64,000 nucleotides of DNA from IMG/VR virus record IMGVR_UViG_3300032516_000007, positions 1-64,000 of that record. One strand, given 5' to 3'. Positions 22,961 through 64,000 of the stretch are shown in pieces (the stretch's first letter is position 1; the number at the start of each line of letters is the position of its first letter). The notes below the pieces were generated by a model. It saw nothing but the letters and a program-made list of their open reading frames with translations, was not told the origin of the DNA and made no database searches. The stretch is from a virus. A program made the position numbers and the translations under genes.

Positions 22961-23532
22961 TGGCAGCTCACGAGAGAGTCTACCTAGCTGTAGACGTTAA
23001 CAACTTGTGGCACTCATGCCGTGAGGTGTACGGGATCACTGCACGTGTGAACTACGCTGGCTTGCTTGCCAAGATCAAGAAGGGTGGATTCACTCAGGTT
23101 CCAAGAGATGTGGTAGCAGTTGCCTATACCATCACTGCACCTCATCGAAGAGTGGCTGGTGATGGACGTGTGCGGGAGGAGGGTTCCAGAAACACTAGGT
23201 TCCTAAGCTCACTTGAACGCTTTGGCTACGAGGTTCGCACTCGGCATATGAAGTACGAAAAGGGGATTGAGAAGCCCTTTCACACAGACTGGGATGTGGG
23301 CATTGCTGTGGATGCACTCCAGCAGATTCACGCATTCGATACCTTTATCATTGCTAGTGGTGATGGGGACTATGCCCCACTTGTGGAGAAGATTCAAAGG
23401 GACGGAAAGCGAGTGGAGGTCTACACCTTCCGCAACTCAGCTTCAATGATCCTGTATCAGCAGGCAGATAGCATGGTTTTCCTGACTGAAGAGGATATCT
23501 ATCGAGAGTCAACATCAGGAACACAAGGATGA
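22957..23532 (+). CDS. NYN/LabA (PIN-like) domain protein
   Basis: VDVNN, DWDVGIAVD, SGDGDY. Confidence 0.88.
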   Translation: MMAAHERVYLAVDVNNLWHSCREVYGITARVNYAGLLAKIKKGGFTQVPRDVVAVAYTITAPHRRVAGDGRVREEGSRNTRFLSSLERFGYEVRTRHMKYEKGIEKPFHTDWDVGIAVDALQQIHAFDTFIIASGDGDYAPLVEKIQRDGKRVEVYTFRNSASMILYQQADSMVFLTEEDIYRESTSGTQG

Positions 23533-25388
23533 CCACACCAGCCCCCATCAAGAGGACTCCTGCTAAGCTTGGGGTCAAGATCCAACGTACTCCGGTCAAG
23601 GTGAAGAAGTCCATTTCCCCCCAGCAGCAATCCTTTCAGAGCATGTTCGGTTCATTGGCTCCACCTCAGCAACAAATCTTCAATGCCAACCTACAGGCAG
23701 TCAGTCCCAAGAATGTCACCCCTGACCAACTGAAAGCTCTCAGTGAGGCGAGCTTCCCACTGTGGGTTATCACTTCTGGCATCAGGGTTGATCATCGTGC
23801 CTTCGATTTTGATAAGCACAAGTATCTCATCCCGCTCTACATGGATCGTGCTCAAGAAGTGATCTTGATGAAGTCAGCTCAGATGGGTGCCACCATTTGG
23901 CTACTTCTCAGGTTGATTCATTTTTGTAAGACCAACTCTGCCAAGGCATGTTTGTTCTTTCCCACTGACGAAGGTGTGAAGCTTCTCTCAAAAGATCGGT
24001 TGGCTCCACTGATTGCTTCCAATGCAGAGCTGGCAGCTCTGATCAAGGACACAGATACGCTGGGGTATAAGCAAATTGGAGTGGACAGTTCTTTCTATCT
24101 TCGTCACCTAGGTGGTGTGGCCTCAAAGGACTCAACACCTTTTGACATGATTGCCTTTGATGAGGTTCGATTGCTTGACGCATCGGACATCTATCAAGCT
24201 CGAGAGCGTGTTAGTCATAGTAATTTCAAGAATGTTCTTCAAGTATCTACTGCCGGATATCCTAACCACGATATACATAGACAATTCTTAAGAGGTACAC
24301 AAAACTATTGGCACACACGATGCAATTGCTCAGATGGTGTTATTCTGAGTGAAGTCTTTCCTGATTGCATGGCAGTTGTGGGTAAGAAGGTTTACTATCG
24401 TTGCCCACGATGCAAGATGAGGATTGATGATCCTCAAAATGGTCAGTTCCTGCCCCACAGTCCAGGGGCTCCGGTTCAGAGCTATCACATTCATCAGATG
24501 TTATCGAAGTTCATCTCTCCTGCTGAAATCTGGGAGAACTACAAGACCACACAGAATATCAAAGAGTTCTTCAACGCCAAACTGGGTAAGCCTTATGTAG
24601 ATGAGGAGAACATTCCCATCACTGATGATGATCTTGAAGCTTGCACCAATACTGATGTGATGTGGATGGAGAAGACCCAGAAGGCAGCCGTGGCCATGGG
24701 CATTGATCAGATGGGTGGCCACAACTACATCATCATCGCCAAACGACTGCCAGGTGGAAAGAAGAGAGTCCTACACTTTGAGATCGTGGATGACCAGAAT
24801 CCAATCTACTGGGAGGCCGGAAAGAGGGTTACCCCTTTCAAACGTGGCTACCAACTGATGAAGGAGTACGATGTTGATCTGTGCATCATAGATGCGATGC
24901 CCAATGCCAACGAGGCAATGGAGTTCGCTCGTGCATTCCCCAAGAGAGTTTTTGTGGCCTGGTACGTTGAACAGCAACGTGAGATCGTCCATTGGGGAGA
25001 TCGCCCCAAGTACAAGATGCTCGTGAGGAAGGGTGGGCCTCAGGTCAAGTTCAAGTACACCTGCCTGCTGAGTCGATACCTCAGCATTGATCTGGCAATG
25101 CGGTCAATTGCAGAGCGTGAGGTGGAGTGGCCCAGTCCTCGGGCTCTGGTTCAAGAGTGTCGTCACCCTAAGACGGGATACTTCGAGCCTTTGTACATCT
25201 TCGAGACTCACTTTTACGAGCACATGAAAAGCATTGTGCGTCAGAAGACGGTTGTCAATGAGGCCACAGGGGCTTTCAAAATGGAGTGGGTTAACCTCGG
25301 TCTAGATCCACACTCTGTTCATTGTTGGAACTACTGTAACATAGCTTTGGAAAGATTGAGAAGAACCCCACTCATGACTTTTGCATAG
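23529..25388 (+). CDS. Terminase large subunit (GpA-like)
   Basis: KSAQMGAT, AFDE, VST, Cys pairs, LGKPY, nuclease GID and IIDAMP. Confidence 0.88.
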   Translation: MTTPAPIKRTPAKLGVKIQRTPVKVKKSISPQQQSFQSMFGSLAPPQQQIFNANLQAVSPKNVTPDQLKALSEASFPLWVITSGIRVDHRAFDFDKHKYLIPLYMDRAQEVILMKSAQMGATIWLLLRLIHFCKTNSAKACLFFPTDEGVKLLSKDRLAPLIASNAELAALIKDTDTLGYKQIGVDSSFYLRHLGGVASKDSTPFDMIAFDEVRLLDASDIYQARERVSHSNFKNVLQVSTAGYPNHDIHRQFLRGTQNYWHTRCNCSDGVILSEVFPDCMAVVGKKVYYRCPRCKMRIDDPQNGQFLPHSPGAPVQSYHIHQMLSKFISPAEIWENYKTTQNIKEFFNAKLGKPYVDEENIPITDDDLEACTNTDVMWMEKTQKAAVAMGIDQMGGHNYIIIAKRLPGGKKRVLHFEIVDDQNPIYWEAGKRVTPFKRGYQLMKEYDVDLCIIDAMPNANEAMEFARAFPKRVFVAWYVEQQREIVHWGDRPKYKMLVRKGGPQVKFKYTCLLSRYLSIDLAMRSIAEREVEWPSPRALVQECRHPKTGYFEPLYIFETHFYEHMKSIVRQKTVVNEATGAFKMEWVNLGLDPHSVHCWNYCNIALERLRRTPLMTFA

Positions 25389-42694: not shown

Positions 42695-45103
42695 GTGGAC
42701 CCACGGATCTCCCGTCAGGTTGATCAGGGGCAACTCAAAAAGGGATTAGATCTCATTGGTCAGTTGATGAGGTTGTCCCTCATCAAAGCTGATGAGACCA
42801 AGGGACCCCTGCCTGGGCAGGCCAAGCTACCAGGAACAAGTCAGGAACCATTTACTTTTAAGCAGCCTGGCGGCGTTCGTCTGACTACTCGTCCGTCTTC
42901 ACCAACCAGGCCAGTAGCATCTGGACCTCAACTCAAGCTGCCAGGGCATGAACCCCATCAGTCAAATCTTCCTCAGACAGAGAAGATCACTCCCAAAGTT
43001 CTACCTGAGCCTCATGCTCCTGAGAAACGTGAGCATGAGGCTGGTCCGCTTCTGATCGGTGGTGGACAATCAAAGCAAGCAGATTGGGGAGGTCTCGAGG
43101 CAGCAGCAAAAAGGGCTCAGGCTGCTGGTCCTGCATTTAAGCAAGAATCTGGATCAAAGATTTTCACTCCTGAGGGTCGAATAGTTGATCCTTCAGGGAA
43201 AACTCCATCTCGTCAACGTTTGGGTCAAGAGACGATGATGGCTGCACCCAGATCTGCCACACCTAAGATTGTGGTTCCGGGTGCGGAAAAGCCATCGGCT
43301 GAGATCATAACTCCTGGACCTCAATCAAAACCAGGAGCGGAGATCATTAAGCCTGCTCCAACTGTTGAGCCTTCAATTGGAACAGAGGGGCGTCGTAAGG
43401 AGATGATTGGTGAGGGGCTCGAGGCTGTCAGTTCAAAGCCAGGAGAAGAACGGACAGCAGCGATGAAAAGGACAGCAGCTCTTCTTGGTTCTAGAGGAAG
43501 AGAACGAGCTGCTGAAGCCCCAGTTTCGACGGAAGCTCGTCTGGCAACTCCTCAAAGTTACTGGATGCCAGGTAAGCCAGGTAAAGATCAACCTGCTGAA
43601 GCGAAAGTTCTTGGTAAACCAGAGGGTGAGGGTGATCTTACTACTGGGGAGGGTGGTAAGGAGCCATCTGGTAAGAAGGGTGGGAAGGAACCATCCGGGC
43701 TTCCTCCTTCGGGTTGGGATCCCTTCAAGAAGCTCAGTCGGAGAAGCAAAAGAAGAGGACCAAATCTTATAGGAGGATATGGGTTTGGTCATGCTATGGG
43801 GGCTACAGCAGCGTCACCGGGAGGGGGAGCTGCCCAGCTTGGAATGTTGACTGGGAGGGCGGTTTCAACGGTTCATGGATTGCTCAATCGTCAGGGCTCT
43901 CGTTACGGATCTCGTTATGAGATGGCTCGGCTTGGTCGGGAAGGTGAGCTGACTCGTCGAGCCCAACTTGGAAGAATGCAGGGTGAGGCTGGGGGTGTCA
44001 TGACCCAAGGTTCCATGGTAAGATCATTGTTCATTAGGGTTGATGATGGAGGGAATGAGCTGGTAAAATCTAGGATCAAACCTAAGAAACCAAAGTCTCG
44101 TCTTTTTGTTTCTCTCTATTCCAATTCTGCTTTGTTTGGGCGTGGAAAGAAGGAGAAGGAAAAGGAGCCAACGGTTCAGCTTCCGACTCTCATGCCTAAG
44201 ACTTCAAAACCTCGCACCGTCACTCTTTTTGGAAAAGCCAAGGATGAGTTCATTCCTGATCCTCAGAATGAGGATATCCAGCCAGATGAGGAAGATGGTG
44301 TGGCATCTGTGTTGGTGGGCGATAGTGATCTGGTGAGCAAGGCAGCTCGAGGACCCCGACCCCGACGGAGGACCCGGCGCTTGATCTTACATCATGAGAA
44401 GAAGATGGTGGAGCATCAGAATCTCATGGTCACGAGTCCCACTGCGGAGGGTGCGAATCTTCACGCTAAGGCAATGGGCCTACACCTTCAAGCTAGGGGT
44501 AGGCATATGAGAGGGGATGCCAGAGCAGAAAAGACTAGCATAGAAGCAAATGTTGCTAGTGAGTCTGCACATAGTGGGATCAACAAGGCTGGGGCAGCTC
44601 AAGAATCAACTGGAAGGTGGACCCTCGAAGATCCAGTACAGGCCAAGCGGGAGCAAGAGCATGGTCTGTATCGTCAACCCACAGGTGTGAGTGGTGGGCC
44701 AACTCCTGATCTTCCGGAGAGAGGTAAGGATTGGCATGGTACGGTTCCTGGGGTTCCCGACGAACCTCAGGATGATGATGAGGAAGAGATTGAGGAAACT
44801 TGGGCGGCTCCAAAGCCAATTCTGGAATCAGAAAAGAAGAAGACTTCAGAGGTGAGTAAAGCACTTGCCTCCTACTGTAGAACTCAGCAAAGAGCACGGG
44901 ATGTATTGAAGTCTCTCCCTGATCTCCATATTGGCCCAGATCTCTCTCCTCGTGAGTTGGAGTTTTTGAAATCACAGGGTGTTGATGATGACGCTATCAT
45001 ACGAGGTAATCTCAGGATCACTCCTCGCATGAGAGTTGAGTTTCGACAGTTCATGACGGACAGAGTGTTCAAGTCTCTGTCTGGGTTGAGGAATCAGACA
45101 TGA
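42695..45103 (+). CDS. Large low-complexity head-module protein with many x-K-[A/S/G] motifs
   Basis: LIKA, LVKS, FGKA, VSKA, INKA, VSKA, VLKS, VFKS; directly upstream of portal. Confidence 0.65.
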   Translation: MDPRISRQVDQGQLKKGLDLIGQLMRLSLIKADETKGPLPGQAKLPGTSQEPFTFKQPGGVRLTTRPSSPTRPVASGPQLKLPGHEPHQSNLPQTEKITPKVLPEPHAPEKREHEAGPLLIGGGQSKQADWGGLEAAAKRAQAAGPAFKQESGSKIFTPEGRIVDPSGKTPSRQRLGQETMMAAPRSATPKIVVPGAEKPSAEIITPGPQSKPGAEIIKPAPTVEPSIGTEGRRKEMIGEGLEAVSSKPGEERTAAMKRTAALLGSRGRERAAEAPVSTEARLATPQSYWMPGKPGKDQPAEAKVLGKPEGEGDLTTGEGGKEPSGKKGGKEPSGLPPSGWDPFKKLSRRSKRRGPNLIGGYGFGHAMGATAASPGGGAAQLGMLTGRAVSTVHGLLNRQGSRYGSRYEMARLGREGELTRRAQLGRMQGEAGGVMTQGSMVRSLFIRVDDGGNELVKSRIKPKKPKSRLFVSLYSNSALFGRGKKEKEKEPTVQLPTLMPKTSKPRTVTLFGKAKDEFIPDPQNEDIQPDEEDGVASVLVGDSDLVSKAARGPRPRRRTRRLILHHEKKMVEHQNLMVTSPTAEGANLHAKAMGLHLQARGRHMRGDARAEKTSIEANVASESAHSGINKAGAAQESTGRWTLEDPVQAKREQEHGLYRQPTGVSGGPTPDLPERGKDWHGTVPGVPDEPQDDDEEEIEETWAAPKPILESEKKKTSEVSKALASYCRTQQRARDVLKSLPDLHIGPDLSPRELEFLKSQGVDDDAIIRGNLRITPRMRVEFRQFMTDRVFKSLSGLRNQT

Positions 45104-47052
45104 TGCCCGGTGTTGACTATTCTGCAATTCAGAAGTCCATCGCAGACAGCACTCGTCTTGAGGACATCTATTCTGATGCCCAGCAGCTCAAGGCGATGAC
45201 CTCTCATGTTCCTGTGGTTACCAAGCAAGATCCAGAAGCTCTCCAGAAGGCGTGGCGCACCATGTCTATGGAGAAGCCTGTAAAGGGTCCTAAGTCTGTC
45301 TTCTTTGATCCTTTATCTCTTCAGTATGCGATGGGGTACAAGGATCGTCGATATTCCTTGACCTATGATACGTTGAAAAGAATCGTCAACCAGCTCAGCA
45401 TTGTGGCTGCGATTGTTAACACACGTATCGCTCAAATTGCTGCCTTTGCAATGCCTTATAGAACTACCAAGTCTCTTGGCTTCATGGTTAAGCACAAGAG
45501 TCCAGAGCACATGACCACTCAGAGTGAGCGACGTTTCATTCAGATGCTTGAAGCGTTTGTCTCAAGTTGTGGTGAGCCTGGGCGGCGAAATCCGTACAGT
45601 AGGTTTGATCGAGACGACTTCGAGGCGTTTTTGAAGAAGATCGTCAGGGATACGATGACCTATGACCAGATCGGAATTGAGATTGTTCCCAGGAACAATA
45701 CCATTCCCTTTGAGTTTCTGGCAGTGGATGGTTCTACACTTCGTCTGGCATCGGCTGACCGATTTCCTGGAAGCGGGAGTGAGTACAGTTACCATGCTCG
45801 AAATGTGGTGGGAGGTTTTACACCTTATCGTTTCCAAGGACTCTACACGGGATCCTATGGCTTAAACAATCCGCGACAAACTGATCCCGAGTCCATTCAG
45901 TATGTGCAGGTTGTCAATGGTCAGATCGAGAATGTTTACACTCGAGATGAGTTGGCTTTTGGCGTTCGGAATCCTCGAACAGATATCTACATTCAGGGAT
46001 ATGGTTTCGGAGAGATTGAGCAGCTCATTACCATCATCACTTCTCTTCTTTATGCCGAGGAGTACAACAAAAGATATTTCACCCAGGGATCCCATCCTAA
46101 GGGAGTTCTCAACTTTAAGGGAGATAACTGGACTCCAGACCAGCTCGAAGCATTCAAGCGTCAATGGATTGCTCAAGTAGCTGGAACAGAGAACAGTTGG
46201 AAGACTCCTATCACTCAGTCAGAGGGGATTGAGTGGATCAACCTCCAGATGTCCAACAAAGAGATGGAGTTTGGACGTTGGATTGAATACTTGATCAAGA
46301 TCGTTTGTGGTGTGTTTCTCATTGATCCCGCTGAGATCAACTTTGACCTTCATGGTGGTGTTCAACAGACACCCCTTTTCGAATCAAGTCAGGAATGGAA
46401 GCTCAAGGCTTCTCGGGATCGAGGGCTCAAGCCTCTTCTTCGCTTCATTGCCAAACTGATCAATACTCATATCATCGACAAGATCGATGACCACTTTGTT
46501 TTTGAGTTTGTGGGTCTGGATGAGCTTTCAGAGCAAGAGAAGCATGAGATGCTCAAGGAGCAGACCGCAAGCTACATGACTCTCAATGAGGGACGACGGT
46601 CGCTGGATCTTCCTGATCTTCCCTACGGGGATGTTCCGATGAATCAAGCTTACCTCCAGGTTCTTCAGTTGAAGATGCAGGAGAATCAGCAGGCAGAACA
46701 GAAGGAGCAGCAGGAACAGCAGATGGCAGCCCAGCAGCAACAGGCAGCGGCTCAACAACCTGGCCAACCACCCTCGGGTCAAGAGGGAGCCCCACCTCAA
46801 GGCCCTGTGGGAGCCCCACCTCAAGGCCCTGTGGGAGCCTCACCTCAAGGAGTTCCTGGGGTGAATCCTGGTGGTCCTGAGGCTGCTGCTGGTGTTGGGG
46901 CGGTTCCAGAACCAACGGGAGAGCCCACACCAGAGGAAGCTGCTGCTGTGAATCCTCCTCCTCAGTACGCTGCCAATTTTGGCAAGTCAATGAAGGGTAG
47001 TAGGGAGATTGTTATTACCCTTGATCATTGGAAAGACATGAAGCGAGGCTAA
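45100..47052 (+). CDS. Portal protein
   Basis: YGFGEIE, NKRYFTQG..PKGVL, FKRQW, MEFGRWIEYL, IDPAEINF, GLKPLL; resembles SPO1/Twort-type portals. Confidence 0.88.
   Translation: MMPGVDYSAIQKSIADSTRLEDIYSDAQQLKAMTSHVPVVTKQDPEALQKAWRTMSMEKPVKGPKSVFFDPLSLQYAMGYKDRRYSLTYDTLKRIVNQLSIVAAIVNTRIAQIAAFAMPYRTTKSLGFMVKHKSPEHMTTQSERRFIQMLEAFVSSCGEPGRRNPYSRFDRDDFEAFLKKIVRDTMTYDQIGIEIVPRNNTIPFEFLAVDGSTLRLASADRFPGSGSEYSYHARNVVGGFTPYRFQGLYTGSYGLNNPRQTDPESIQYVQVVNGQIENVYTRDELAFGVRNPRTDIYIQGYGFGEIEQLITIITSLLYAEEYNKRYFTQGSHPKGVLNFKGDNWTPDQLEAFKRQWIAQVAGTENSWKTPITQSEGIEWINLQMSNKEMEFGRWIEYLIKIVCGVFLIDPAEINFDLHGGVQQTPLFESSQEWKLKASRDRGLKPLLRFIAKLINTHIIDKIDDHFVFEFVGLDELSEQEKHEMLKEQTASYMTLNEGRRSLDLPDLPYGDVPMNQAYLQVLQLKMQENQQAEQKEQQEQQMAAQQQQAAAQQPGQPPSGQEGAPPQGPVGAPPQGPVGASPQGVPGVNPGGPEAAAGVGAVPEPTGEPTPEEAAAVNPPPQYAANFGKSMKGSREIVITLDHWKDMKRG
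46786..46850 (+). repeat. 24-bp coding tandem repeat (GAPPQGPV) in portal tail
   Basis: GGAGCCCCACCTCAAGGCCCTGTG, about 2.7 copies. Confidence 0.85.
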
Positions 47053-53012: not shown

Positions 53013-53648
53013 ATGAGACCCGACATGATTAGCCCCCGACGGCTTCGTCCTGCTAGTGACGGTTCACACAGTGAGCCCTTGTTTCGGATGACCAGGGAAG
53101 ATCCCCATCGAGTGCTCAAAGGGATTGTGATTCCCCAGACAGTGCGTGGTCAGGTCAATGGAGTGATGCCTGGGGCGTCGGCTCCCCCGAAACCTCAGCC
53201 CTCTCTGTGGGTGATGAGGAAAGCGGATCCATCTCAACAGGAGATGATCCCTGGGGGTCTGGCTTCTGGGAAGGCTGATACAGCTTTCGATCCTGAAGCT
53301 CTCAAGGTGGGGATGAAGGTTGAGCTGGAGCATTCAGGCAACGCCAAGCTGGCTCGGGAGATTGCCAAAGATCATCTGACCGAGGACCCTGATTACTACA
53401 AGAAGCTGGCCAAGATGGAAGCCAAGAAGGCTATGGGTGGGTTGGTGACGAAGTCCAAGGAAATGGAGGGCAAGAAGAGAAGTTGGATGCCCCCCACCGA
53501 GTACAGTCCCGAAGCCTATGGGAAGCCTCCTCATCCAGAGGGTCATGGGTTCATCAGTGGTGAGCCAATCGAGAAGATCAAGGAAAGGTTGGCAAAGTTG
53601 CAACCTCACCGTCCGAAGGGTACAGGGCAATTCAACCTCGACGATTAG
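53013..53648 (+). CDS. DUF5661-like domain head protein
   Basis: IPGGLA...GMKVELEH...AREIAKDHLTEDPDYYKKL, flanked by MRKA and KKAM. Confidence 0.7.
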   Translation: MRPDMISPRRLRPASDGSHSEPLFRMTREDPHRVLKGIVIPQTVRGQVNGVMPGASAPPKPQPSLWVMRKADPSQQEMIPGGLASGKADTAFDPEALKVGMKVELEHSGNAKLAREIAKDHLTEDPDYYKKLAKMEAKKAMGGLVTKSKEMEGKKRSWMPPTEYSPEAYGKPPHPEGHGFISGEPIEKIKERLAKLQPHRPKGTGQFNLDD

Positions 53649-53665: not shown

Positions 53666-54574
53666 ATGCCGATTCTGACGAGGCAGCAAGTTGAGAAGCT
53701 TGCTGAGATCATTGACCAGCACACCACCTGGTTCGTCTGGCGAGCTTTCGGTTCCCAGTACGTCAAGAAAGAAGATCTAGACAAGCTGAAGGCTAGTGGA
53801 CTCCTGCCTATGGATGTGCAGGTGTCCACGATCAAGAATGCCTACGTTTTGGGTCGGCTGGAATCTCTGCTCAAGGAAAACGATTTCAGGAAGTTGACCT
53901 GGGTTCAGCTCCAAGAGGCAGCCAAGGGTCGCTTTACCTCTGTTGACAAGTTCCAGATCGAAGCGGCTGAGATGAGTGCCTTTACGAAGTTTCGTGGATT
54001 GGCTGACGACATCAAGAGTCGTCTCTACGATCGTTTGGCTCAGGCGACGAACAGCACTGTGACTGAAGCTCATGTGCGAGGGACGATCAAGGACATTGTT
54101 AAGGTTGGGGTTGAACTCAGCCAATCCTTCCAGAAGGTGGCCAGAGAGTTGGTGGAGGAGCTGAAGGAACCAACTCGAAATTGGACTCGTGTGGCTGCCA
54201 CGGAGCTTCACACAGCGTGGCAACGGGGTGTGGTCAACACGATCATTCAGAAGGTAGATCTGTACGAGGATTCTGAGGGCATTGATAGCAACGTCTTTGT
54301 TGATCATGACGATGATGCCTGTGAGGACTGCAAGAGGATCTACAACGATCCCAAGACTGGTCATCCCAAGATCATGAAGTTGAGAGACCTTCTCGAGAAC
54401 GAGGGATCCAACTATCAACGGCCATGGCGTCAGAATGCTAAGCCGGTTGTCCCTCCTCTGCATCCCCACTGCTATGGGCGTGTGATCTATGTTCCCCCAG
54501 GTTGGGGGTTCAAGGATGATGGTACGTTCACTCTGATCGATCCCAAGGAAGCTTACCCGGAGCTGAACGAATGA
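53666..54574 (+). CDS. MuF-like head morphogenesis protein
   Basis: RNWTRVAATE, DACEDC, PPLHPHC. Confidence 0.8.
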   Translation: MPILTRQQVEKLAEIIDQHTTWFVWRAFGSQYVKKEDLDKLKASGLLPMDVQVSTIKNAYVLGRLESLLKENDFRKLTWVQLQEAAKGRFTSVDKFQIEAAEMSAFTKFRGLADDIKSRLYDRLAQATNSTVTEAHVRGTIKDIVKVGVELSQSFQKVARELVEELKEPTRNWTRVAATELHTAWQRGVVNTIIQKVDLYEDSEGIDSNVFVDHDDDACEDCKRIYNDPKTGHPKIMKLRDLLENEGSNYQRPWRQNAKPVVPPLHPHCYGRVIYVPPGWGFKDDGTFTLIDPKEAYPELNE

Positions 54575-57387
54575 ATCACTTCATCAGCAAGACTATTAGG
54601 TACTATCATCCTTACTTACCAACTCACACCCTTCGTAAGGCTGAAGAGCCCGGTGAGTTCCGTGGTGGGGACCCCGAGGAGATGCGTCTGAAGAAGGAAG
54701 AAAAGCAAACTGAGCTAGGTGAATCTGGGGATGCTGGAGAAGATCAGGGTGGGGAAGAGCCAGATCCTGCCGATGTGGAGGAGGCTCAGCAGGCAGATCA
54801 GGATAAGTCAGAAGGGAAATCTGTCAGTATTGGGAAAGCGATTACCACAGCCATGGGTGCGGTTGAGGCTTCTCCATGGCCACCCAACACAACGGATTAT
54901 CCTTCCAAGGATCGGAATGGTAATCCAGTTCATGACAATGTGGACTTTCACTTTCGTGGGGTCAAACAGCCCTGGATTGAAGTGGGTCCCCCTCGTCAGG
55001 GTCCCAATCAGAAGAAGCCCTGGTCAGAGGTTCTGGGTCTTCCCCCATTGATGGCTCCTTCTGGACCTCCCTATTGGCGTCAGAAGCTTCTACAGGAACG
55101 AAGGGATGAGCTTGGGATGAGTCCCAGACCCAGGCTCATCGAACCTACTGATATGTACGCTATGCAGTCTGTGGCAAAGGCTTTCGATGATCTTCTAGAG
55201 AAGGCAAAGGCGACGCTTGGCGGGGAGTCTGCTGAACACCACCCATATATTCCTGGATATAAGGATAAGATCAAAACACCTGTTTCTTTGAATGTTGATA
55301 GCTTAGATCATGTTCCTGAGCATATAAATAAACATGTCTCTAAGATTGTTGGTCCTCATTGGAAAGATCATATTCATAGATATGTCAAAGAAGTTAACAG
55401 TGGGGAGGGTTTAAGTTTTACTCCTTCTCCTGTTCTTCGAGCTATGGAAGATTGGATGGGAGGTGGTGGTAAGTTTCCACATAAACGAGGGGCAGGGCAG
55501 GCTATTGTGTCCAATGATGTAAAAGCTTTGAATCATCTGACACAACGTGCAGGTCATGCTGGGTGGCATCGGTCTGGTGTAGTTGCTGGAGTTTTATCCA
55601 GGATGCCTTTGAATCATGAAGCTATCAAACATCAAACTGGTGGTAGTATTCCAACGCATCTTTATCGTGGTAGTATGTATGTTCCCCATGCGGCAAAGGT
55701 TGGTGATGTTTTTCATCTTTCTCCATCTTCATTTAGTTCCGGTAAACTTGTGGAGCCATTCAAAGACTATCCAGGGCTTATGAAGATGAGGTTACCGTCC
55801 AGAGGATTTAGTTTGGGTAATCACAGTTTGTGGCCAGAACGGGAGGTACTTGTTTCTGGTCATTATAGAATCCATAATATATCTTATCCTCGTGGTCGTA
55901 CTATGTTTCATGTTGAAGAGATTCCTCATGGTGAAGTTAATAAAGCTATTGAGAATCAATCTCAGCATGAAATGAACCAATTTATAGCTTCTCATCCTTC
56001 TGAGATGGTGTCTGCTAAAGGAGCAGAGGATATTGAGCATGTGGGGAGGGGACTTGGAAAGAGAATGGCTCCCTGTCCCTACGGAGGGGGAATCGAATGC
56101 CTTCGGCATGGTGGAGATGGTGCTGATGCTCATTACCCATCATTCCACCATAAACATGAAGATCAATCCCTGAGTCACGAAGATGTTCTCCATCAGGAAG
56201 CTGGAAAAGATCCTGGGGAACGAACACATAGCCTTAACCAGATGCAGAAGAAGGCTCTTGTTGGGCATGTGATGTCCAGGTACGAAAGTGAAGGTACAGA
56301 TCTAGATAACCCTGATACAAGATCGAAGTACATGAAGACACTTCGGCATATTCACGGTTATTTGGGTAAAGACGCAGAGTCAAACGCATGGAGAAAGAAA
56401 GCCATTTCGGAGTGGAAGTCCAAGATTAGTCAGTATCATGGTTCAGAGGATCAAAAGCCAGAGGGTCACCTGGCCATGGAAGCTGCTGAGAAGCAGATCG
56501 ATGTGACTTGTGATTTTTCAAGGGAAGTCGGTTGGGGTTCTACAGATAGTAAAGAGTCAGATCTTCCAGAGAAGATGTTGGAGCAAGCATTTGGTAGGCA
56601 AATGAGGATTAGTGACTTTGAGAGGGCGTATACTGTCGATGATGATAATCTAAAACTTCCAACTCCTGATGGTGGATATGGGGCAAATATTCATCACATC
56701 AACATTGTCGAAAAGGAACAGGGCCAGTACGAGATCAATGTGATGGGGTCTATTGATTATAGTTATGGTGAGGGTAGTGAGCGGGCAGCTACATTCGTTC
56801 GAGTGATTCACTGTTCTGTTGGTGGTAAGAAGAAGCAAGATCGTTTCATTATGGTTCACCATGACAAGATATTTGTGCTAGATGCTGATCATAGTAAGGT
56901 TGGTGGGCATCAGAACTCTGGATTGAGTACGGATTTTCTCAAGCATAGTGTTATTGAATACCAGAAATGGGGGGTTAATCAGATCACAACAAGTCCGCAC
57001 TGGGTGGGTAAGTACACTTGGGCTCGAATGGGATTCCAGTGGAATGAGGAGGCTGCTGCCACTGTGGGTCGCCATATGACCAAATTTTTGATCAGTCATT
57101 ATGGGATGGAGAAGAAGGCTGCTGCAAAATTGGCGGCTAAATTTGCTGATATGCCATCCAGATTTGCTGTCAAGACGCTTTCTAATCCTCAATTGACTGA
57201 AGATGGTCAGGCATTGTTTAGATCTTTCGAGAAGAGCGAGTACAGATGCAAGCCAGAGGAGGTTGGGAAGGCATTCCTTCTTAGTGATGGTGGTAACCAA
57301 GTTTGGATGAATGGGGGCATGGTGGACATGTCTCGGAAAACCAGTCCTAGTTACCGTCAATTGAGGAAGTATCTGGGTTTGAAGTAG
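54571..57387 (+). CDS. Multidomain protein: ADP-ribosyltransferase plus GNAT acetyltransferase
   Basis: ART R-S-E motifs LYRG, SSFS, EREVL; GNAT-like HQNSGLSTDFL...GKYTWARMGF. Confidence 0.75.
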   Translation: MNHFISKTIRYYHPYLPTHTLRKAEEPGEFRGGDPEEMRLKKEEKQTELGESGDAGEDQGGEEPDPADVEEAQQADQDKSEGKSVSIGKAITTAMGAVEASPWPPNTTDYPSKDRNGNPVHDNVDFHFRGVKQPWIEVGPPRQGPNQKKPWSEVLGLPPLMAPSGPPYWRQKLLQERRDELGMSPRPRLIEPTDMYAMQSVAKAFDDLLEKAKATLGGESAEHHPYIPGYKDKIKTPVSLNVDSLDHVPEHINKHVSKIVGPHWKDHIHRYVKEVNSGEGLSFTPSPVLRAMEDWMGGGGKFPHKRGAGQAIVSNDVKALNHLTQRAGHAGWHRSGVVAGVLSRMPLNHEAIKHQTGGSIPTHLYRGSMYVPHAAKVGDVFHLSPSSFSSGKLVEPFKDYPGLMKMRLPSRGFSLGNHSLWPEREVLVSGHYRIHNISYPRGRTMFHVEEIPHGEVNKAIENQSQHEMNQFIASHPSEMVSAKGAEDIEHVGRGLGKRMAPCPYGGGIECLRHGGDGADAHYPSFHHKHEDQSLSHEDVLHQEAGKDPGERTHSLNQMQKKALVGHVMSRYESEGTDLDNPDTRSKYMKTLRHIHGYLGKDAESNAWRKKAISEWKSKISQYHGSEDQKPEGHLAMEAAEKQIDVTCDFSREVGWGSTDSKESDLPEKMLEQAFGRQMRISDFERAYTVDDDNLKLPTPDGGYGANIHHINIVEKEQGQYEINVMGSIDYSYGEGSERAATFVRVIHCSVGGKKKQDRFIMVHHDKIFVLDADHSKVGGHQNSGLSTDFLKHSVIEYQKWGVNQITTSPHWVGKYTWARMGFQWNEEAAATVGRHMTKFLISHYGMEKKAAAKLAAKFADMPSRFAVKTLSNPQLTEDGQALFRSFEKSEYRCKPEEVGKAFLLSDGGNQVWMNGGMVDMSRKTSPSYRQLRKYLGLK

Positions 57388-57395: not shown

Positions 57396-58688
57396 ATGCT
57401 TAATTTGTTCGATGATCTAATGAAGGCGGCCCGTCGGGTATCTCCATTCCCCGTTCCTCAAGGAATGACCCATGGAGATGTGCTTCGTCATCAAGCAATA
57501 CATGTTCACCGTGCCGGGGGTCTTCCATCCTCCAGGGAGCATCGATTAGCTCTACAGGCGAAACCATCACCTCTTACATCGGAGCATGTGGCAGAAACAG
57601 TATCAAAGAATAAACTTCTTCATCCTAAACATGTAACAGCATTGATTGATCATGCTCATGATCATTTTAGTAGATTGTTGAGGACGCCTGGAAGGATGAA
57701 TGAAGAATCTTACCATAAGGTAATGGAAACTCTTGGTGATGCTGTTAATGTTGCTCATGAGACTAAGCACCCAAAAAGAAATTCATTAAGGAACTTGCAG
57801 GCCAAAGCAATTAGGAATCATGTTGGTTCTTATTCTTATCCAGTAGTAAATACTAGATTCAAAAATATGGAAGGTGTTGTTTCGCATGTTACTCCAAATG
57901 GTTGGGCAGAAGCTAGAGAGAATACTCCAGCACACAAGTCAACTCTTGGTCATTACACTTTGCATAATGTATTCAAAGATAAAGTAAATGATGCTGATCA
58001 TTATTTACATGATTCTTTTAAGATGGATCATCCAGACTATACGTCTAAGGTTAACGATTCTGCTTTGGAATTTGAATCAGATATTAGTTCAAAAGAACAT
58101 CAAAGACGGAGTATTCAAAGTACACATTCTTGGCCACATAGGGTAACTGTATCGGGGGATATCGTTCACCATAGTGGAGGTTTGATTGGTCAATTTAGTA
58201 GAACTTTTGGAAGAGATGTCAATGGTGATCTTCGTGTAAATCATGATGGTCTGAGCTTAGATAAAGAACATCAGGGATATGGTATTTCTAAGGCTCTTAT
58301 GAAATCATCATTGGAGCACTATAGACAGATGGGAGTTAAGACTGTTCACGTTGGGCCAGCCGATGTTGGAAGATACACGTGGGCCAAGATGGGATTCCAT
58401 TGGGGTGAAGATGGGACAAGGCATGTCAAAAGGACGTTACCAAAGTTCTTAGTGGAGCATGGAGAGGATCCCAAGTCTGCTCAAGAGATTACTGATAGGC
58501 ATGCTGACAAGCCATGGGAGATAGCTTCTCTTCATATCGGCGGGAGGCATGTTGGGAAGAAGTATTTGTTAAGAGGAGATGTTTCTGGGCAGAGTGGACC
58601 ATGGGGGTACACTGGAGGTTCTTTGGAGTTGCATCCCGATAACCCTGGATACCAACATATCAGCAAATACGTTGGATTGAATAGGTGA
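57396..58688 (+). CDS. GNAT-domain putative internal head protein
   Basis: LDKEHQGYGISKAL...GRYTWAKMGF; N-terminal DLMKA. Confidence 0.75.
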   Translation: MLNLFDDLMKAARRVSPFPVPQGMTHGDVLRHQAIHVHRAGGLPSSREHRLALQAKPSPLTSEHVAETVSKNKLLHPKHVTALIDHAHDHFSRLLRTPGRMNEESYHKVMETLGDAVNVAHETKHPKRNSLRNLQAKAIRNHVGSYSYPVVNTRFKNMEGVVSHVTPNGWAEARENTPAHKSTLGHYTLHNVFKDKVNDADHYLHDSFKMDHPDYTSKVNDSALEFESDISSKEHQRRSIQSTHSWPHRVTVSGDIVHHSGGLIGQFSRTFGRDVNGDLRVNHDGLSLDKEHQGYGISKALMKSSLEHYRQMGVKTVHVGPADVGRYTWAKMGFHWGEDGTRHVKRTLPKFLVEHGEDPKSAQEITDRHADKPWEIASLHIGGRHVGKKYLLRGDVSGQSGPWGYTGGSLELHPDNPGYQHISKYVGLNR

Positions 58689-58693: not shown

Positions 58694-59449
58694 ATGAAAC
58701 GTCCAATGAAAGAATCGGCTTACGATTTAACTGATCTTGTTGATCAGGATAAATCTGGTGATATTCACTATTCTACTGATGGTACTAGAACCATGAATCA
58801 TGAAGGGATGATTGATTGGGATCAAAGTACCGAAGCGATGGACCTTGGTGACAGTCATCCAGAGGACAAAGTTGTTTTCGATTACGATGGCAATGTGATT
58901 CATGATCCTGAAATGGAGGGTCAGGTAGATGGTGGAGACGAGGAGCCGGAAGCTTCACCAGAAGAGGAGCTTCCTGGTGATTCTAGAACCACGGGAGAAC
59001 CCACCAAGGAGCCTGCCATGGGAACTGAATCTCCAAATCCCCAGCCTACTCAACCGTTAATGGGGATAGCCGCTCAGGGGGGCCAAGAGGAGCCTCAGGA
59101 AGCTCAGGGGGAGCCCCAAGGGGGCCAGGAGACAACTCAGGGGGCTCAGGAAGAAGAGCAGACCCAGGAGGGTCAGGAGCCATCCCAGGAGGGTTCTGAG
59201 GAGCAGGGAGACCTTCTCTCAGTGGATGACCCTGCCCAGGCCCAGCAGCTCCTCCAGAACGCCGATAAGATGGACCGGCCTCACATGCTTCAGGTGGCTA
59301 AACTCATCTGGGGGGATGACTACGAGTTTGAGGACTGGATGACGGACGATTACGTGCGAGCAGACCTGAAGGGGTCACTCGAGGATGTTCTCGAGAGCCA
59401 TGAAGAGGGAGTTGCTCCTGTCGAAGGGGAAGACGAGGAAGAGGAGTAG
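58694..59449 (+). CDS. Highly acidic protein (scaffold-like?)
   Basis: D/E/Q-rich low complexity. Confidence 0.55.
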   Translation: MKRPMKESAYDLTDLVDQDKSGDIHYSTDGTRTMNHEGMIDWDQSTEAMDLGDSHPEDKVVFDYDGNVIHDPEMEGQVDGGDEEPEASPEEELPGDSRTTGEPTKEPAMGTESPNPQPTQPLMGIAAQGGQEEPQEAQGEPQGGQETTQGAQEEEQTQEGQEPSQEGSEEQGDLLSVDDPAQAQQLLQNADKMDRPHMLQVAKLIWGDDYEFEDWMTDDYVRADLKGSLEDVLESHEEGVAPVEGEDEEEE

Positions 59450-59456: not shown

Positions 59457-62400
59457 ATGATGCTTCCTCTGTGGATCGATCTTGTCAAGGCACGCAAAGG
59501 TGAGCGTGTTGGGGGAAAGTATATCCACAGATGGTGGAACTCTGGTCAGAACAAGTGGAACTACAAGTATTCTGATAAGCCTCACCCCCAGCATGGAATT
59601 CCCTATGTGGCTACTTCCAGCCACACGATTGAGGTTCACCCATCAGTGAAATCTGAAGCCTCACCAGAAGAGGCGTTCCACCAGTCGGCCAGGGCAGAGC
59701 TGAAGCATGGGGAGGAGCAGAAGGCCACATTCAAAAACCCCAGTGGGGAGGTTCTGTTCACGGTCCACGTCAAGCCTGGGCTCGACAATCCTATCCATGT
59801 TGCCCCTCCTGGAACCCAATCAGCTCGGGGGGCTCAGAGGATGGGCAGTTTGCGCCGATTCGAGAATTGGTTTCGTCGGCGTATGACCACACAGACAGTT
59901 TATGATGCTCATGGTGATCCTTGGTTTGATGTGCGGCTTCGTGGTCAGAGTGGTGAGTATCATCGTGAGGGTAAGATTCTGAATCCCAGCGATCGTTTGT
60001 CAGTTCGCTACTACCCTGACAGTCCCTACAATCCCTATCCGAAAGAAGAGACAGCCTGGGTTCCAGGCCCATTTCGTCAGGGCAGCATGAATGAGTGGGT
60101 CAGAGGGGAACATCGAAAACAAAGAGTATCTGGGCAGCGTGTGAAACCTGCCAAAGTTTTTTCAAAGGATGCAAAGCGGCCAGCCACCACGATGCTGGAG
60201 CAGGGGACCATCACTTGGAAGCAGGTTTTTCAACCTAAGAAGGGAAGGGGTGGAAAGTGGTGGAAACGAGTTGCGACGAATCTTAGGAGTAAAGATCAAT
60301 TCTATTCTCGCATTATTCAGGAGCACTTTGGGTTGATTGTGAATCAGGCTATTCGTCAGTTGAAGATCTACTACATCACTGACAAAGATGGTCATCCAGA
60401 TCGAAGAGCAGTGGCTCAGCTACTTGGATACTATGGGGGACCTGGACGCAAGATGAAGGTTCAGGTTGATTCGGATTCTCCTACTCATCGGGCTGTTGAG
60501 AGAGCAGTCAATTCTTATGATCCTGAGAAGGGATGGAGATTCAATACCTACTTGGGTCACTGTGTGTGGTGGGAGCAATTCAAAGAGACCAAGAGGATTC
60601 TGGATCAGATAACTGCCCATAGAAAGCTGATCTCTAGAACTTCAGACAATGCTGGAAACATTCTGGATGAGATTAGTCTGACCCAGGCTGCTCCCGGTCA
60701 TGAAGCGATCATTGGGGCTGGGGTTCATTACCAGACAGCCGAGGAGCACGTATCCCAAGATCAGGAAGTAGTTCAGAATTGGTTGAATCGGCAAGAGGAT
60801 AAGTTGTCACGCTACGTTGTGGCTGAAGATGATCCTGATCGTCAGATGATAGCGTTCAATGCACTTCAGCATCTTGATGCAGTCAAGAACATCCAGCAGG
60901 CCATGGCTTTTGTGGTTCACTATCAGTCCTCGGGTGGTGATGGGTTCGCAGAGCCATTAGAGTCTCCTGAGGATCGCTCAGTGGAGATTGCAACGCCTAG
61001 GCTGACCAAGCAGGAGAAGCTTAACTGGGTGAATCTTGTCACTGAGCACCCAACTCTCACGAATCGAGAGAGGCATGCCCTCCTGGTGCTGGCTCCTACT
61101 GGTGATCTAACTGACATGGTTCCGTTCGATGAAGTTGCATCGAAACTAAACAAAGATCATCCAAAGGAGTTCCCGAGGGAGCCTAGGGTGAATGAGGTGG
61201 TGGACCTTTTCTTGGATGCCTACACGAAACTGGTTGGCTCACCGGAGTTTGAAGCCATGCAGAGGAAGCTGTTCGCTGTTGCCAAGGCTATTGGTATCCT
61301 GAGCAAGGGGATCAAACGGGGAGGGAAGGCTCAGGACTATGAGTACCTTCGCAGAGAGGGCCTGCCTGGTGGCTACAAGTATTTCTACAAGGAGCCTGGA
61401 ACCGAAAACATCATTCGGGGCACAAATGCTCCAGTGGATCATCCTCACCACGATGCGTCCCTTGGGGTGTCTCAAAAGCATCCTCGTGAGCCTGACCCCG
61501 TGAAAGACCCTCAGTATTTTGATCCTCGTAATGGCAGAAAACTCCACCGAGCTGCCCCTGAACATGCTGAGTGGAACAAGAACTACGGTCTGGAGCGTCC
61601 CCTTTCTGCGTGGGTAGCAAAGTGGCCCAAGGCAGATCCGAACAATCCTGATCCCGAATACGCCTACTACCATTCAGATCAGGAAGGTAGAGGGGATCTG
61701 AAGTTCCACGTTAGCAATCGTCATTTCGCTGTGCAGTTGCCCAAGGTGAGGAAACTCTATAGTACCTTGATGAAGAGTAAGGAATTCTCAAGTCGAGTTC
61801 TGGGATTGATGATCTCTCTTCTGGATCAGGTGTATATGCGTCCTGGTAAGAAACAGCATGAGGAGAAGACTGGACATGTTGGGCTGGTTACATTGAAAGT
61901 ATCCAACGTTGTGATGAAGGGTAATGTAGCTACTTTCTCTTATGTGGGTAAGAGGGGAGTGAACATTGTTCACAGTATCACTCTAGATCATCCAACTGCA
62001 AAGATCATGAAGGATCTGATCAAAGCTCCCGGTAAATCACCCAAGGACTATTTGTTCTCTGTTCCGGTCCAAGTTGGTAGGAGAGTCAAATTCCGGGATG
62101 TTGGTTACAACAAGTTGTCCAGGACCCTTGATGAGGCGGTTGGTGTCACTCCCAAGCAATTCAGGATCTATCATGGGACAGAGGCGTTCTCGAGGACGTT
62201 TGAGCAGCTCCTCGAGGGGGTCAAGGGAAGAGTAACCCCCAAGGTTCTAGAAGCACTCACTGAGCAGTCGGCCCTCGAGGTGGCAAGGATGCTGGATCAT
62301 TATGTTGGCAAGGGGGCAGAACAGAAACTTCACAGTCAGACGGCTTTGAAGAGCTATATTGATCCTGTAGTGGTGAGGTCTCTTTATCTCAATGCCCTTA

Positions 62401-62873
62401 CTCCAGATGTGAGCAAGGCATTCAAGCTTCAGGGAACTACAGAATTCCAGGGTCTCCCCATCAGCATTGAAAACAAGAAAGGATCAATTCGTAGGTGGTA
62501 TGATCCCCACGAGAAGAGGAATGGGGTTACTCCCATGCACTTTGATTATGGGTACATTCGTAGGACAGAGGGCATGGATGGAGATCATGTGGATGTCTAT
62601 ATTGGCCCCCACCCTGAGTCCACAATAGCGTTTGTGGTGCATCAGATGAAGGGTCCAGATTTCTTCGAGTTTGATGAAGATAAGGTGATGTTGGGATTCT
62701 CCTCTGCTGATGAGGCCCGATTGGCATACCTCAAACAGTACGACAAGCCTGGGTTCTTTGGTGGGATCACTGCTATTCCGATGGATCAATTCAAGGAGAA
62801 GCTGGCTCAAACCAAAGATCATCCGATGATGCTGAAATCGTTTGTGTGGTTTGGGAATGAGGTGCTTCAGTGA
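59457..62873 (+). CDS. Polyprotein: sigma-70-like factor, topoisomerase IB, inorganic pyrophosphatase
   Basis: Sigma2 AVNSYDPEKGWRFNTY, sigma4 LTNRER...FDEVA; TopIB MRPG, GKRG, KQFR, LDH, KSYIDP; PPase IEN..GS.R, YGYI, DGDHVDV, DEDKVMLG. Confidence 0.82.
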   Translation: MMLPLWIDLVKARKGERVGGKYIHRWWNSGQNKWNYKYSDKPHPQHGIPYVATSSHTIEVHPSVKSEASPEEAFHQSARAELKHGEEQKATFKNPSGEVLFTVHVKPGLDNPIHVAPPGTQSARGAQRMGSLRRFENWFRRRMTTQTVYDAHGDPWFDVRLRGQSGEYHREGKILNPSDRLSVRYYPDSPYNPYPKEETAWVPGPFRQGSMNEWVRGEHRKQRVSGQRVKPAKVFSKDAKRPATTMLEQGTITWKQVFQPKKGRGGKWWKRVATNLRSKDQFYSRIIQEHFGLIVNQAIRQLKIYYITDKDGHPDRRAVAQLLGYYGGPGRKMKVQVDSDSPTHRAVERAVNSYDPEKGWRFNTYLGHCVWWEQFKETKRILDQITAHRKLISRTSDNAGNILDEISLTQAAPGHEAIIGAGVHYQTAEEHVSQDQEVVQNWLNRQEDKLSRYVVAEDDPDRQMIAFNALQHLDAVKNIQQAMAFVVHYQSSGGDGFAEPLESPEDRSVEIATPRLTKQEKLNWVNLVTEHPTLTNRERHALLVLAPTGDLTDMVPFDEVASKLNKDHPKEFPREPRVNEVVDLFLDAYTKLVGSPEFEAMQRKLFAVAKAIGILSKGIKRGGKAQDYEYLRREGLPGGYKYFYKEPGTENIIRGTNAPVDHPHHDASLGVSQKHPREPDPVKDPQYFDPRNGRKLHRAAPEHAEWNKNYGLERPLSAWVAKWPKADPNNPDPEYAYYHSDQEGRGDLKFHVSNRHFAVQLPKVRKLYSTLMKSKEFSSRVLGLMISLLDQVYMRPGKKQHEEKTGHVGLVTLKVSNVVMKGNVATFSYVGKRGVNIVHSITLDHPTAKIMKDLIKAPGKSPKDYLFSVPVQVGRRVKFRDVGYNKLSRTLDEAVGVTPKQFRIYHGTEAFSRTFEQLLEGVKGRVTPKVLEALTEQSALEVARMLDHYVGKGAEQKLHSQTALKSYIDPVVVRSLYLNALTPDVSKAFKLQGTTEFQGLPISIENKKGSIRRWYDPHEKRNGVTPMHFDYGYIRRTEGMDGDHVDVYIGPHPESTIAFVVHQMKGPDFFEFDEDKVMLGFSSADEARLAYLKQYDKPGFFGGITAIPMDQFKEKLAQTKDHPMMLKSFVWFGNEVLQ

Positions 62874-63865
62874 TCACCACAACTTCAGTTGGAGAGAAGT
62901 TTCAGAAGCCAATCCGAAGATTTGGCAGGTACGTTGCTCTGACTCCAAGTCATCTACATCGGAAGTTGAAGAATGGCCACTACTCAATCATCTCTGCTGG
63001 TGCGAATAGATCTGATCCCAAAGAGAAAGATTTGCCCTGGGATCATCCCATGTTCAAGGAGCGACACGAGAAGCTGAGGCAAGATTTGATCCATCATGGG
63101 CTTGATCACACAGAAGGGATGGGTCACTACGAGGGGAAAGAGCATTCGTTTGTTGTGTACCATGGTCCAGGTGGGAGGACTCCACCGGATGTTTCTGGAA
63201 CCAAATCCTTTATGGTGCATCACGAACATCCCAGTGAGCATGCAACAGTCAGGGACCTTGGGAAAAAGTACAATCAGCAGAGTGTGATTCATTCCTTGGG
63301 TGGTAAGCATGAACTTCATTTTGTGACAGGTGATCATGCAGGGACTCACCACAAGGGAGTGGGCCACGAGATCAAGCCCCATGCCGAAGACTACTATACT
63401 GAGATCAAACACAAGGAACCTCGCTCAACTAAGTTCTCTCTGAACTTAAATTGGGGTACCCATCATCCAGAGCATGAGGCAGTGCTGAAGGCTATGGTTC
63501 CAGAATCAGGAGAGGAAGGGGATGGGGAAGAAGAAGGGAGTTCTCACATCCACCACGTGACTGCTGATCCTCCCGATCAGTTCCCTCATGAGATAGAGTT
63601 TAACCGATGGTTGCACTCTCATCCAATCCATGAGAGTGATCATGAGTGGAATTCAGTCAAGACAATGGGGGGCTTCAAAGATCTCCACATCCCAAGTCCC
63701 GAAGGGGAAGATGATGAGCAATCGTCTGCCGAGTCTGATCGTGCTGGATTCCAAGGTGGTGAACCTGATCAAGGGTCTGATGGGGAGCCCGAGTCCGCAG
63801 AGCCTGAGGACTACTCCTACCTCGACTCTTACCAGCATGGAGATCGAAAGCCTGCTGAAAAGTGA
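62870..63865 (+). CDS. SAM lyase (T3 SAMase-like) domain protein with acidic tail
   Basis: SIISA, RH..L..DL, GHY...EHSF, LGKKYNQQSVI. Confidence 0.55.
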   Translation: MITTTSVGEKFQKPIRRFGRYVALTPSHLHRKLKNGHYSIISAGANRSDPKEKDLPWDHPMFKERHEKLRQDLIHHGLDHTEGMGHYEGKEHSFVVYHGPGGRTPPDVSGTKSFMVHHEHPSEHATVRDLGKKYNQQSVIHSLGGKHELHFVTGDHAGTHHKGVGHEIKPHAEDYYTEIKHKEPRSTKFSLNLNWGTHHPEHEAVLKAMVPESGEEGDGEEEGSSHIHHVTADPPDQFPHEIEFNRWLHSHPIHESDHEWNSVKTMGGFKDLHIPSPEGEDDEQSSAESDRAGFQGGEPDQGSDGEPESAEPEDYSYLDSYQHGDRKPAEK

Positions 63866-64000
63866 CCAGCTTGGTTTTGACTACCCCATCCCTGTAGGGG
63901 ATGAGCTGATCAAGGGAAGTCGGCATTCCAAGACTCAACAGCATGCTTGGCAGAAACTTGTTCAAGCTGTGGCCAATATAAAAGGTGCTCCCAATATCGT

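Follow-up and report, generated by a model that had tools for sequence, protein, structure and literature searches.

A single open reading frame (ORF) at positions 59457-62873 (plus strand) of the IMG/VR virus record IMGVR_UViG_3300032516_000007 encodes a protein of 1138 aa, in which a module that is very probably a divergent member of the sigma-70 family (residues 272-610) is joined to a topoisomerase IB (TopIB) and a polyvalent-type pyrophosphatase (InPase). The window, meaning the whole stretch of DNA analyzed, covers positions 1-64,000 of this record, and the virus is uncultured. The gene lies between the portal and prohead protease genes, and a motif resembling the putative maturation site of the capsid protein recurs at its module borders. 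We tentatively read the protein as a capsid-packaged, protease-cut cargo that would deliver a sigma factor, TopIB and pyrophosphatase together with the DNA. Packaging in the capsid and proteolytic release form the best-supported account because of the gene position, the motif and an InPase subtype linked to virions.

The ORF and its homologues

The record is a virus contig of 115,041 bp with an estimated completeness of 68%, corresponding to a full genome of about 170 kb, and belongs to a large myovirus with an SPO1-type capsid. As the sequence-only reading of the window had proposed, 59457-62873 is one real ORF, ending in a stop codon after 1138 codons. The longest open frame starts at 59385, yet the upstream gene stops only at 59449. 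The ATG at 59457 follows that stop by 8 nt, is preceded by a Shine-Dalgarno-like sequence (GAGGAG) and is the start common to all homologues.

A word-indexed search of 5.8 billion proteins recovered 13 homologous clusters, which are 43-100% identical and share the architecture; sigma, TopIB and InPase follow each other in this order in every one of them, down to 43% identity. Their loci were found in viral and metagenome collections, on contigs of up to 152 kb. No relative was present in 185,579 prokaryote genomes scanned. The phage collection held no full-length relatives and matched just InPase or TopIB pieces, the best phage tblastn match to the TopIB part being Burkholderia phage BCSR5 (28% identity). 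The most divergent relative, L003, encodes a 1734-aa ORF (L003:6459-11663), in which an extra N-terminal part related to the protein at window positions 54571-57387 is fused in front.

Topoisomerase and pyrophosphatase modules

The TopIB module spans residues 611-987 (61287-62417, plus strand). Its catalytic core, residues 749-949 (61701-62303, plus strand), matches PF01028 (Topoisom_I) with E 2.1e-23 and 83.4 bits, against a Pfam cut-off of 23.7. Sequence matches in the PDB include the enzyme of Deinococcus (2f4q, E 6.6e-10), an archaeal enzyme (6z01), and human and poxvirus TopIB. R795, K832 and R903 align to the catalytic Arg, Lys and Arg of the Deinococcus and human enzymes, and Y967 sits in S-Y-I-D-P, aligned to the Tyr motif (YIDP) of 6z01; H948 was assigned as catalytic by position, not by explicit alignment. 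All five residues, R795-K832-R903-H948-Y967, are invariant in 13/13 sequences, so that the TopIB with an intact R-K-R-H-Y set predicted at about 61700-62400 is borne out.

The InPase module follows at residues 988-1127 (62418-62837, plus strand). PF18823 (InPase) matches residues 992-1116 (62430-62804) with E 2.3e-37 and 128.3 bits, against a Pfam cut-off of 26.8, in agreement with the range of about 62440-62810 where a polyvalent-type pyrophosphatase had been placed from the letters. The module also matches the C-terminus of the Pseudomonas phage Pa193 portal (PDB 9b41, E 1.8e-13). Its metal ligands E1005, D1041, D1043, D1046, D1073, D1075 and K1076 are invariant or nearly so among the 13 sequences, with the conserved motifs D-G-D-x-x-D and D-E-D-K.

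The sigma-70-like module

For the module at residues 272-610, a profile (A2) was made of residues 272-615 from nine phages. Searched against the PDB, this profile matched sigma factors in 19 of 19 cases at E<10, the best being RpoS (E 0.0035). Comparison with E. coli RpoS by hhalign gave a probability of 93.3% over 40 columns and paired the G-W-R-F-x-T-Y...W-W segment with G-F-R-F-S-T-Y-A-T-W-W of RpoS; region 2 was matched again with an alignment of RpoS, FliA and RpoH. The weak NCBIfam matches of four family members were exclusively to sigma families; the lowest E, 5e-6, came from a homologue. W360, F362, T364, Y365, W371 and W372 are conserved in 12-13 of the 13 sequences, with an insert of three residues before the W-W dyad. 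We take these residues to correspond to Y425, F427, T429, Y430 and W433/W434 of sigma-70.

The domain 2-like part comprises residues 272-395 (60270-60641, plus strand), where fold, profile and conserved residues coincide, with the region 2.2-2.4 motif at residues 345-383 (60489-60605, plus strand). With VIA, an aligner independent of Foldseek, residues 1-114 of the AlphaFold2 (AF2) model of the segment superposed on sigma domain 2 of 1sig (Z 7.5, root-mean-square deviation (rmsd) 2.3, 71 aa) and on the N-terminal domain of SigE (8b3z; Z 7.4, 80/80). Further matches were 3ugo, 4x8k, 5h6x and T4 gp55 (7d7d_F, Z 6.4); Z scores below 8, as all these are, count as support only jointly with the sequence evidence. 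The sequence-only reading had placed sigma region 2 at 60300-60580 (residues 282-375), which coincides with the match by both fold and sequence profile.

A middle helical segment follows at residues 396-485 (60642-60911, plus strand); its helices are partly disordered in the model and gave only generic helical-bundle fold matches, and it is a possible equivalent of sigma3. It leads into an acidic loop, Q-S-x-G-G-D-x-F-x-E-P, in residues 486-516 (60912-61004, plus strand), which has a low predicted local distance difference test score (pLDDT) and extends to the sigma4-like domain. Q490, S491, G493, G494, F497, E499 and P500 in this loop are invariant, and it may be the positional equivalent of the sigma region 3.2 finger. 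The domain 4-like helix-turn-helix occupies residues 517-605 (61005-61271, plus strand) and contains a 4.1-like motif, L-T-x-x-E-R-x-A-L. Residues 246-332 of the model superposed on sigma4 of SigF (8jzt; Z 6.5, rmsd 2.0, 57/57), and other matches were SigD4 (3vep), CnrH (4cxf), SigR region 4 (5fgm) and BldN (6dxo), with Z 6.1-6.5. The region 4 predicted at 61050-61270 (residues 532-605) coincides with this fold match, while a match at the sequence level was found neither with Pfam nor with hhalign against RpoS or the RpoS/FliA/RpoH alignment, where sigma4 again went unmatched.

Whole sigma factors span both the sigma2-like and the sigma4-like parts in the right order when aligned with VIA. Foldseek returned nothing at E<1e-3 for the model of the sigma segment, and about 44 of its top 50 rows were sigma factors. 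The absence of sigma2 and sigma4 folds from the N-terminal part had been named beforehand as evidence that would count against a sigma factor here; AF2 modeling with structure alignment gave matches to both, those to sigma4 at middling Z. Among 1.84 billion representatives, phmmer with residues 272-615 gave five matches, of which the strong ones were the family itself or its fragments and none was a recognized sigma factor. The A2 profile matched nothing among proteins of 184-604 aa, so that no stand-alone form of the module was found at those lengths, and an Atlas search with the sigma part gave weak leads only (0.86). The Pfam scan of the full-length protein listed no sigma families.

Candidate protease motif at the module borders

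The motif h-x-K-[A/S], with h a hydrophobic residue and an invariant Lys, is present at all four module borders, namely at K11, K610, K987 and K1127. An 11-residue leader (59457-59489, plus strand; pLDDT <50) ends in L-x-K11|A12, a candidate protease site retained in all 12 homologues covering this region. At the sigma/TopIB border, the candidate site K610|A611 (61284-61289, plus strand) is disordered in the model, and both of its residues are invariant in 13/13 sequences, with a hydrophobic residue at -2. The conserved candidate site at the TopIB/InPase border is K987|A988 (62415-62420, plus strand), where K987 is invariant, the next residue is A or S, and V, I, M or L stands at -2. The last candidate site is M-(L/I)-K1127|S (62835-62840, plus strand), with M1125 and K1127 invariant; homologues P0006, P0010, P0012 and P0014 extend beyond it into further modules. 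Two of the four border motifs fall in disordered model segments. The KA/KS linkers noticed between the modules at first reading are therefore real features of the domain borders with invariant Lys positions.

The major capsid protein (MCP) of the same record carries L-H-K29|A30, and the 439-aa capsid chain of PDB 9row begins at the residue aligned to A30. The MCP of phi812 has V-V-K-S at the equivalent position, and N-terminal sequencing for phages A511 and K reportedly gives a further basis for this cleavage site. A search of the accessible literature found no published proof of a Herelleviridae MCP cleavage site. We infer that h-x-K-[A/S/G] marks the MCP maturation site.

With h-x-K-[A/S/G] set as the a priori motif and 200 within-protein shuffles as the null, 84 copies were counted in the proteins from portal to MCP, compared with 37.6+-6.0 after shuffling, an enrichment of about 2.2-fold that none of the 200 shuffles reached. 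The rest of the genome holds 92 copies against 87+-8.7, and the enrichment is thus confined to the portal-MCP block. An Arg control motif was flat, and the enrichment was replicated in the loci of four relatives. The 314-aa scaffold alone has 13 copies and the MCP just one, at K29|A30. Judged by these motifs, the protein appears to share the capsid maturation motif at accessible sites, as head cargo processed by the prohead protease would.

Position in the head-gene block

The portal gene (45100-47052, plus strand; PF04860, E 3e-22) forms the upstream edge of a 22-kb block, in which 12 closely spaced ORFs share one orientation and which runs from window position 47028 through 64000 and on to genome position 69329. 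Downstream of the block stand the prohead protease (genome 69956-70837), scaffold and MCP genes (together genome 69956-73298), followed by the tail terminator and sheath. The MCP is 40-44% identical to the capsid proteins of SPO1 and CP-51 (E 1e-107 to SPO1 Gp6.1 in the PDB). The slot of the gene between portal and protease, scaffold and MCP is kept in four related phages. Polyvalent proteins are recognized by at least two effector domains and a head-gene context; this protein carries three modules besides its N-terminal domain and is encoded between portal and protease. Moreover, an unrelated small phage contig (L004:6174-8249) encodes a protein of 692 aa in which TopIB is strongly matched (E 2e-34), flanked by a Mu-type portal gene and a lambda-E-type capsid gene, and TopIB thus recurs in a head-gene slot.

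Proposed role and alternatives

In the delivery account that we tentatively favor, the polyprotein would be made late with the head genes and taken into the prohead, where the prohead protease would cut after Lys in h-x-K|[A/S] motifs. Cleavage is predicted to yield the N-terminal domain with the sigma-70-like factor (residues 12-610), TopIB (611-987) and a family-I-like pyrophosphatase (988-1127), all of which would exit the capsid with the DNA at the next infection. Once bound to the core of the host RNA polymerase (RNAP), the sigma-like product would open promoters on the incoming genome, with TopIB serving as a swivel that relieves the torsional stress of transcribing still-tethered DNA and the pyrophosphatase clearing pyrophosphate (PPi). 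A sigma factor made from a late head operon would be useful mainly if carried to the next cell, like the virion RNAP of N4 and Alt of T4. Since DNA cannot rotate freely during entry, a TopIB swivel would fit its transcription. Host RNAP might in this way be redirected before any phage gene is expressed. The complete sequence of events is rather doubtful, namely that a tailed phage packages a protease-released sigma factor, ejects it with a TopIB swivel and a pyrophosphatase, and captures the host core for phage-specific promoters before phage gene expression.

Several observations weigh against this account. The sequence-level sigma match spans just about 40 residues, and curated cut-offs for sigma families are missed, with best NCBIfam scores of 18-26 bits against cut-offs of 250-1000; Pfam Sigma70_r2 (PF04542) hits one place in the 115-kb record, which is the sigma-like module, at 12.4 bits where the cut-off is 24. 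Modeling the sigma segment with AF2 gave pLDDT 69.9 and a predicted template modeling score (pTM) of 0.36, and sigma4 has the modest support of Z 6-6.5; domains as small and helical as this one give middling Z by chance. In L003 the sigma2 motif is degenerate, with the F-x-T-Y/W-W residues gone, while TopIB and InPase are kept. The h-x-K-[A/S/G] motif is permissive, and four more copies lie inside the TopIB fold. Enrichment of k-mers in intergenic gaps revealed no convincing phage promoter motif, and the record, at its estimated completeness, is below full length. Finally, other modules of the block shuffle freely, so the fusion may reflect packaging logistics instead of a joint function. Of the three-part composition claimed by the sequence-only reading, TopIB and pyrophosphatase are firm; the sigma part is supported by fold, profile-profile comparison and key residues, yet stays under curated hidden Markov model (HMM) cut-offs. 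The virion delivery proposed in that reading has indirect support from the gene position, the border motif and an InPase subtype known from portal fusions.

Some of these points would also suit a protein that is packaged with a sigma-like module acting merely as an RNAP-docking element or decoy, which sequesters or inhibits the host core or tethers the N-terminal domain, while TopIB and InPase have independent targets in the incoming DNA or in nucleotide signals. We consider this unlikely, as the conserved residues (the equivalents of Y425, F427 and Y430, and the W-dyad) are the set by which sigma captures the -10 strand and stabilizes the fork, none of which mere docking needs, and the sigma4-like helix-turn-helix and finger-like acidic loop are conserved too. 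What speaks for such a role is that sequence-level support is confined to sigma2, that the sigma4-like domain has an enlarged turn and lacks an HMM match, that L003 retains both enzymes beside a degenerate sigma2, and that no cognate promoter was found. In addition, counter-defence or nucleotide-signal roles have been proposed for InPase by Iyer et al. (PMC5512222).

The protein might instead not be packaged at all, and work inside the cell as a middle or late transcription-replication factor whose gene lies in the head cluster by coincidence, with the sigma module for late transcription and TopIB and pyrophosphatase for replication or packaging of a large genome. Middle and late phage sigma factors are common (SPO1, T4, phiEco32), jumbo phages have free-standing TopIB, and PF04542 finds no second sigma factor in the 115-kb record, so that the phage may need the module for its own late genes. 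This is nevertheless improbable. The gene keeps its slot between portal and protease in relatives, the capsid-protease motif stands without variation at each border and is enriched in the block only, the InPase subtype is tied to virion proteins, and a late-gene sigma factor encoded inside the late operon would be circular.

That the modules have no joint function and are interchangeable cargo, joined for capsid loading with a separate and possibly anti-defence target for each enzyme, agrees with the general logic of polyvalent proteins (PMC5512222), with the protease motif at each border and with the SAM-lyase-like and GNAT-like modules that change position or fusion partner among relatives, but is quite improbable given the constant order of sigma, TopIB and InPase in 13/13 homologues, the persistence of TopIB-InPase in L003 and the vaccinia precedent tying virion TopIB to early transcription.

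Relation to known systems

Polyvalent virion-delivered phage proteins, InPase fusions, phage sigma factors and jumbo-phage TopIB are already known. The virion RNAP of phage N4 and the ADP-ribosyltransferase Alt of T4 are made late, carried in the capsid and active on transcription as the next infection begins. Internal proteins of T4 are also cut by the prohead protease. N4 brings a complete single-subunit polymerase and Alt modifies host RNAP, whereas the cargo proposed here would be a promoter-specificity subunit for the host core, joined with a topoisomerase and a pyrophosphatase. If true, this would be a new route to transcription takeover at time zero, in which the phage brings the promoter-recognition subunit itself, and a third strategy beside the injected polymerase of N4 and the injected RNAP modifier of T4. 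The capsid maturation protease would double as the enzyme that processes a cargo polyprotein of several enzymes, and such cargo loci would be predictable from sequence because they share their motif with the capsid protein. As each of the three parts is small and can be separated and assayed, the hypothesis is directly testable without a cultured phage.

Phage polyvalent proteins with InPase were described by Iyer, Burroughs, Anand, de Souza and Aravind (2017; PMC5512222), who proposed that they are packaged and delivered with the DNA; the same paper includes the suggestion that early transcription benefits from removal of PPi by InPase. A multi-enzyme polypeptide, the PF18823 InPase and a head-gene neighborhood are common to those proteins and the protein studied here. 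The paper lists neither a sigma factor nor TopIB among the polyvalent domains, while a sigma-like module and TopIB are present here. The protein has no zincin (MPTase) processing domain, and its borders carry instead the motif that we assign to the prohead protease. The Pa193 portal gp19 (PDB 9B41, PMC11456595) is a virion protein with this InPase subtype; the map does not resolve residues 529-765, although the protein contains them (PMC11456595).

Vaccinia virus encapsidates a TopIB that serves mainly early transcription (Shaffer & Traktman 1987; Da Fonseca & Moss 2003, both as cited in PMC12188299). That enzyme belongs to the same family and has the same R-K-R-H-Y set, but is free-standing and not part of a sigma polyprotein, and its virus, a eukaryotic one, packages an RNAP of its own. 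The delivery account, if true, would provide a parallel to the encapsidated poxvirus TopIB among bacterial viruses. Free-standing phage sigma factors, divergent members of the sigma-70 family that redirect the host core, include SPO1 gp28 and gp33/34, T4 gp55, and gp36 of phiEco32/SU10 (PMC7824862, PMC4281155). In contrast to the module described here, they are encoded by separate early or middle genes, act in the same infection, are not established virion components, and none is fused to an enzyme. Proteomics of SU10 detected one sigma peptide, alongside DNA polymerase and other non-structural proteins. TopIB with a tyrosine-recombinase fold is found in some jumbo phages (Iyer et al. 2021; PMC7824862), where it is described as a replication or topology gene and not as part of a head-module polyprotein. 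In the literature searched, neither a sigma factor nor TopIB was described within virion cargo of the polyvalent kind, in keeping with the earlier remark that no virion-packaged sigma factor of this kind had been described.

N-terminal domain and a repeated element

Upstream of the sigma-like module, residues 12-271 (59490-60269, plus strand) form an alpha/beta domain that opens with a basic-aromatic element, KY..R..W.Y.Y. Its AF2 model reached pLDDT 75 and pTM 0.63, and gave no informative fold match and no Atlas match. Two copies of the element, K-Y-x-x-R...W/Y-x-Y-x-Y with K-G in front, are present in the protein, at residues 21-38 (59517-59570) and at residues 628-644 (61338-61388), the second copy opening the TopIB module. 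Both copies stand shortly downstream of a K|A site, and the element is absent from all other proteins of the record.

Repeated palindrome and RNAP search

The palindrome TTCTAGAA is the commonest 8-mer of the record, with 36 copies in 115 kb where about 1.6 are expected. Copies in the window include those at 7344, 30917, 31891, 31957, 37722, 40297, 41933 and 53657. The palindrome is often extended to TG(A/G)TTCTAGAA(T/C)CA, and 24 copies are intragenic. It was considered as a promoter of the sigma-like module and rejected, since TTCTAGAA-N6-TAnnnT was seen in just 5 of 72 site orientations, and we do not link the two. It looks more like the site of a dimeric protein or a modification site than a sigma promoter. 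A phage RNAP (PF00940, PF00623) was not found in the record, which is incomplete and in which the PF00940 control matched nowhere.

Neighboring genes and other features of the record

The SAM-lyase-like gene at 62870-63865 (plus strand) overlaps the stop of the ORF by 4 nt and matches PF23780 with E 2.9e-5, below the cut-off. Homologues P0006 and P0014 carry this domain as a C-terminal fusion, and in L007, L010 and L011 it lies upstream of the gene. A GNAT acetyltransferase-like protein is encoded at 57396-58688 (residues 276-335, E 5e-4, below the cut-off). Both the SAM-lyase-like and the GNAT-like modules shift position or fuse between relatives. The gene after the SAM-lyase-like gene starts at window position 63630, passes the end of the window at 64000 and reaches genome position 69329 (L015:1630-7329). 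It encodes a 1899-aa protein with a weak SF2-helicase signal, which has about 50% identity in relatives and no family matches apart from ResIII/DEAD at residues 1133-1201 (E 0.02). A DUF5661 protein is encoded at 53013-53648 (E 1.7e-13). MuF and ART domains had no Pfam match in the block even at E 5, and no promoter or terminator signals above chance were detected within it.

The record also codes for PolA, a gp32-like SSB, a RecA/UvsX-like protein, Mre11/Rad50-like proteins and TerL. The large terminase gene (23529-25388) lies about 20 kb from the portal gene with mostly small ORFs between, which is unusual for tailed phages; a separation of terminase and portal has been reported in SPO1-like phages (PMC3601020).

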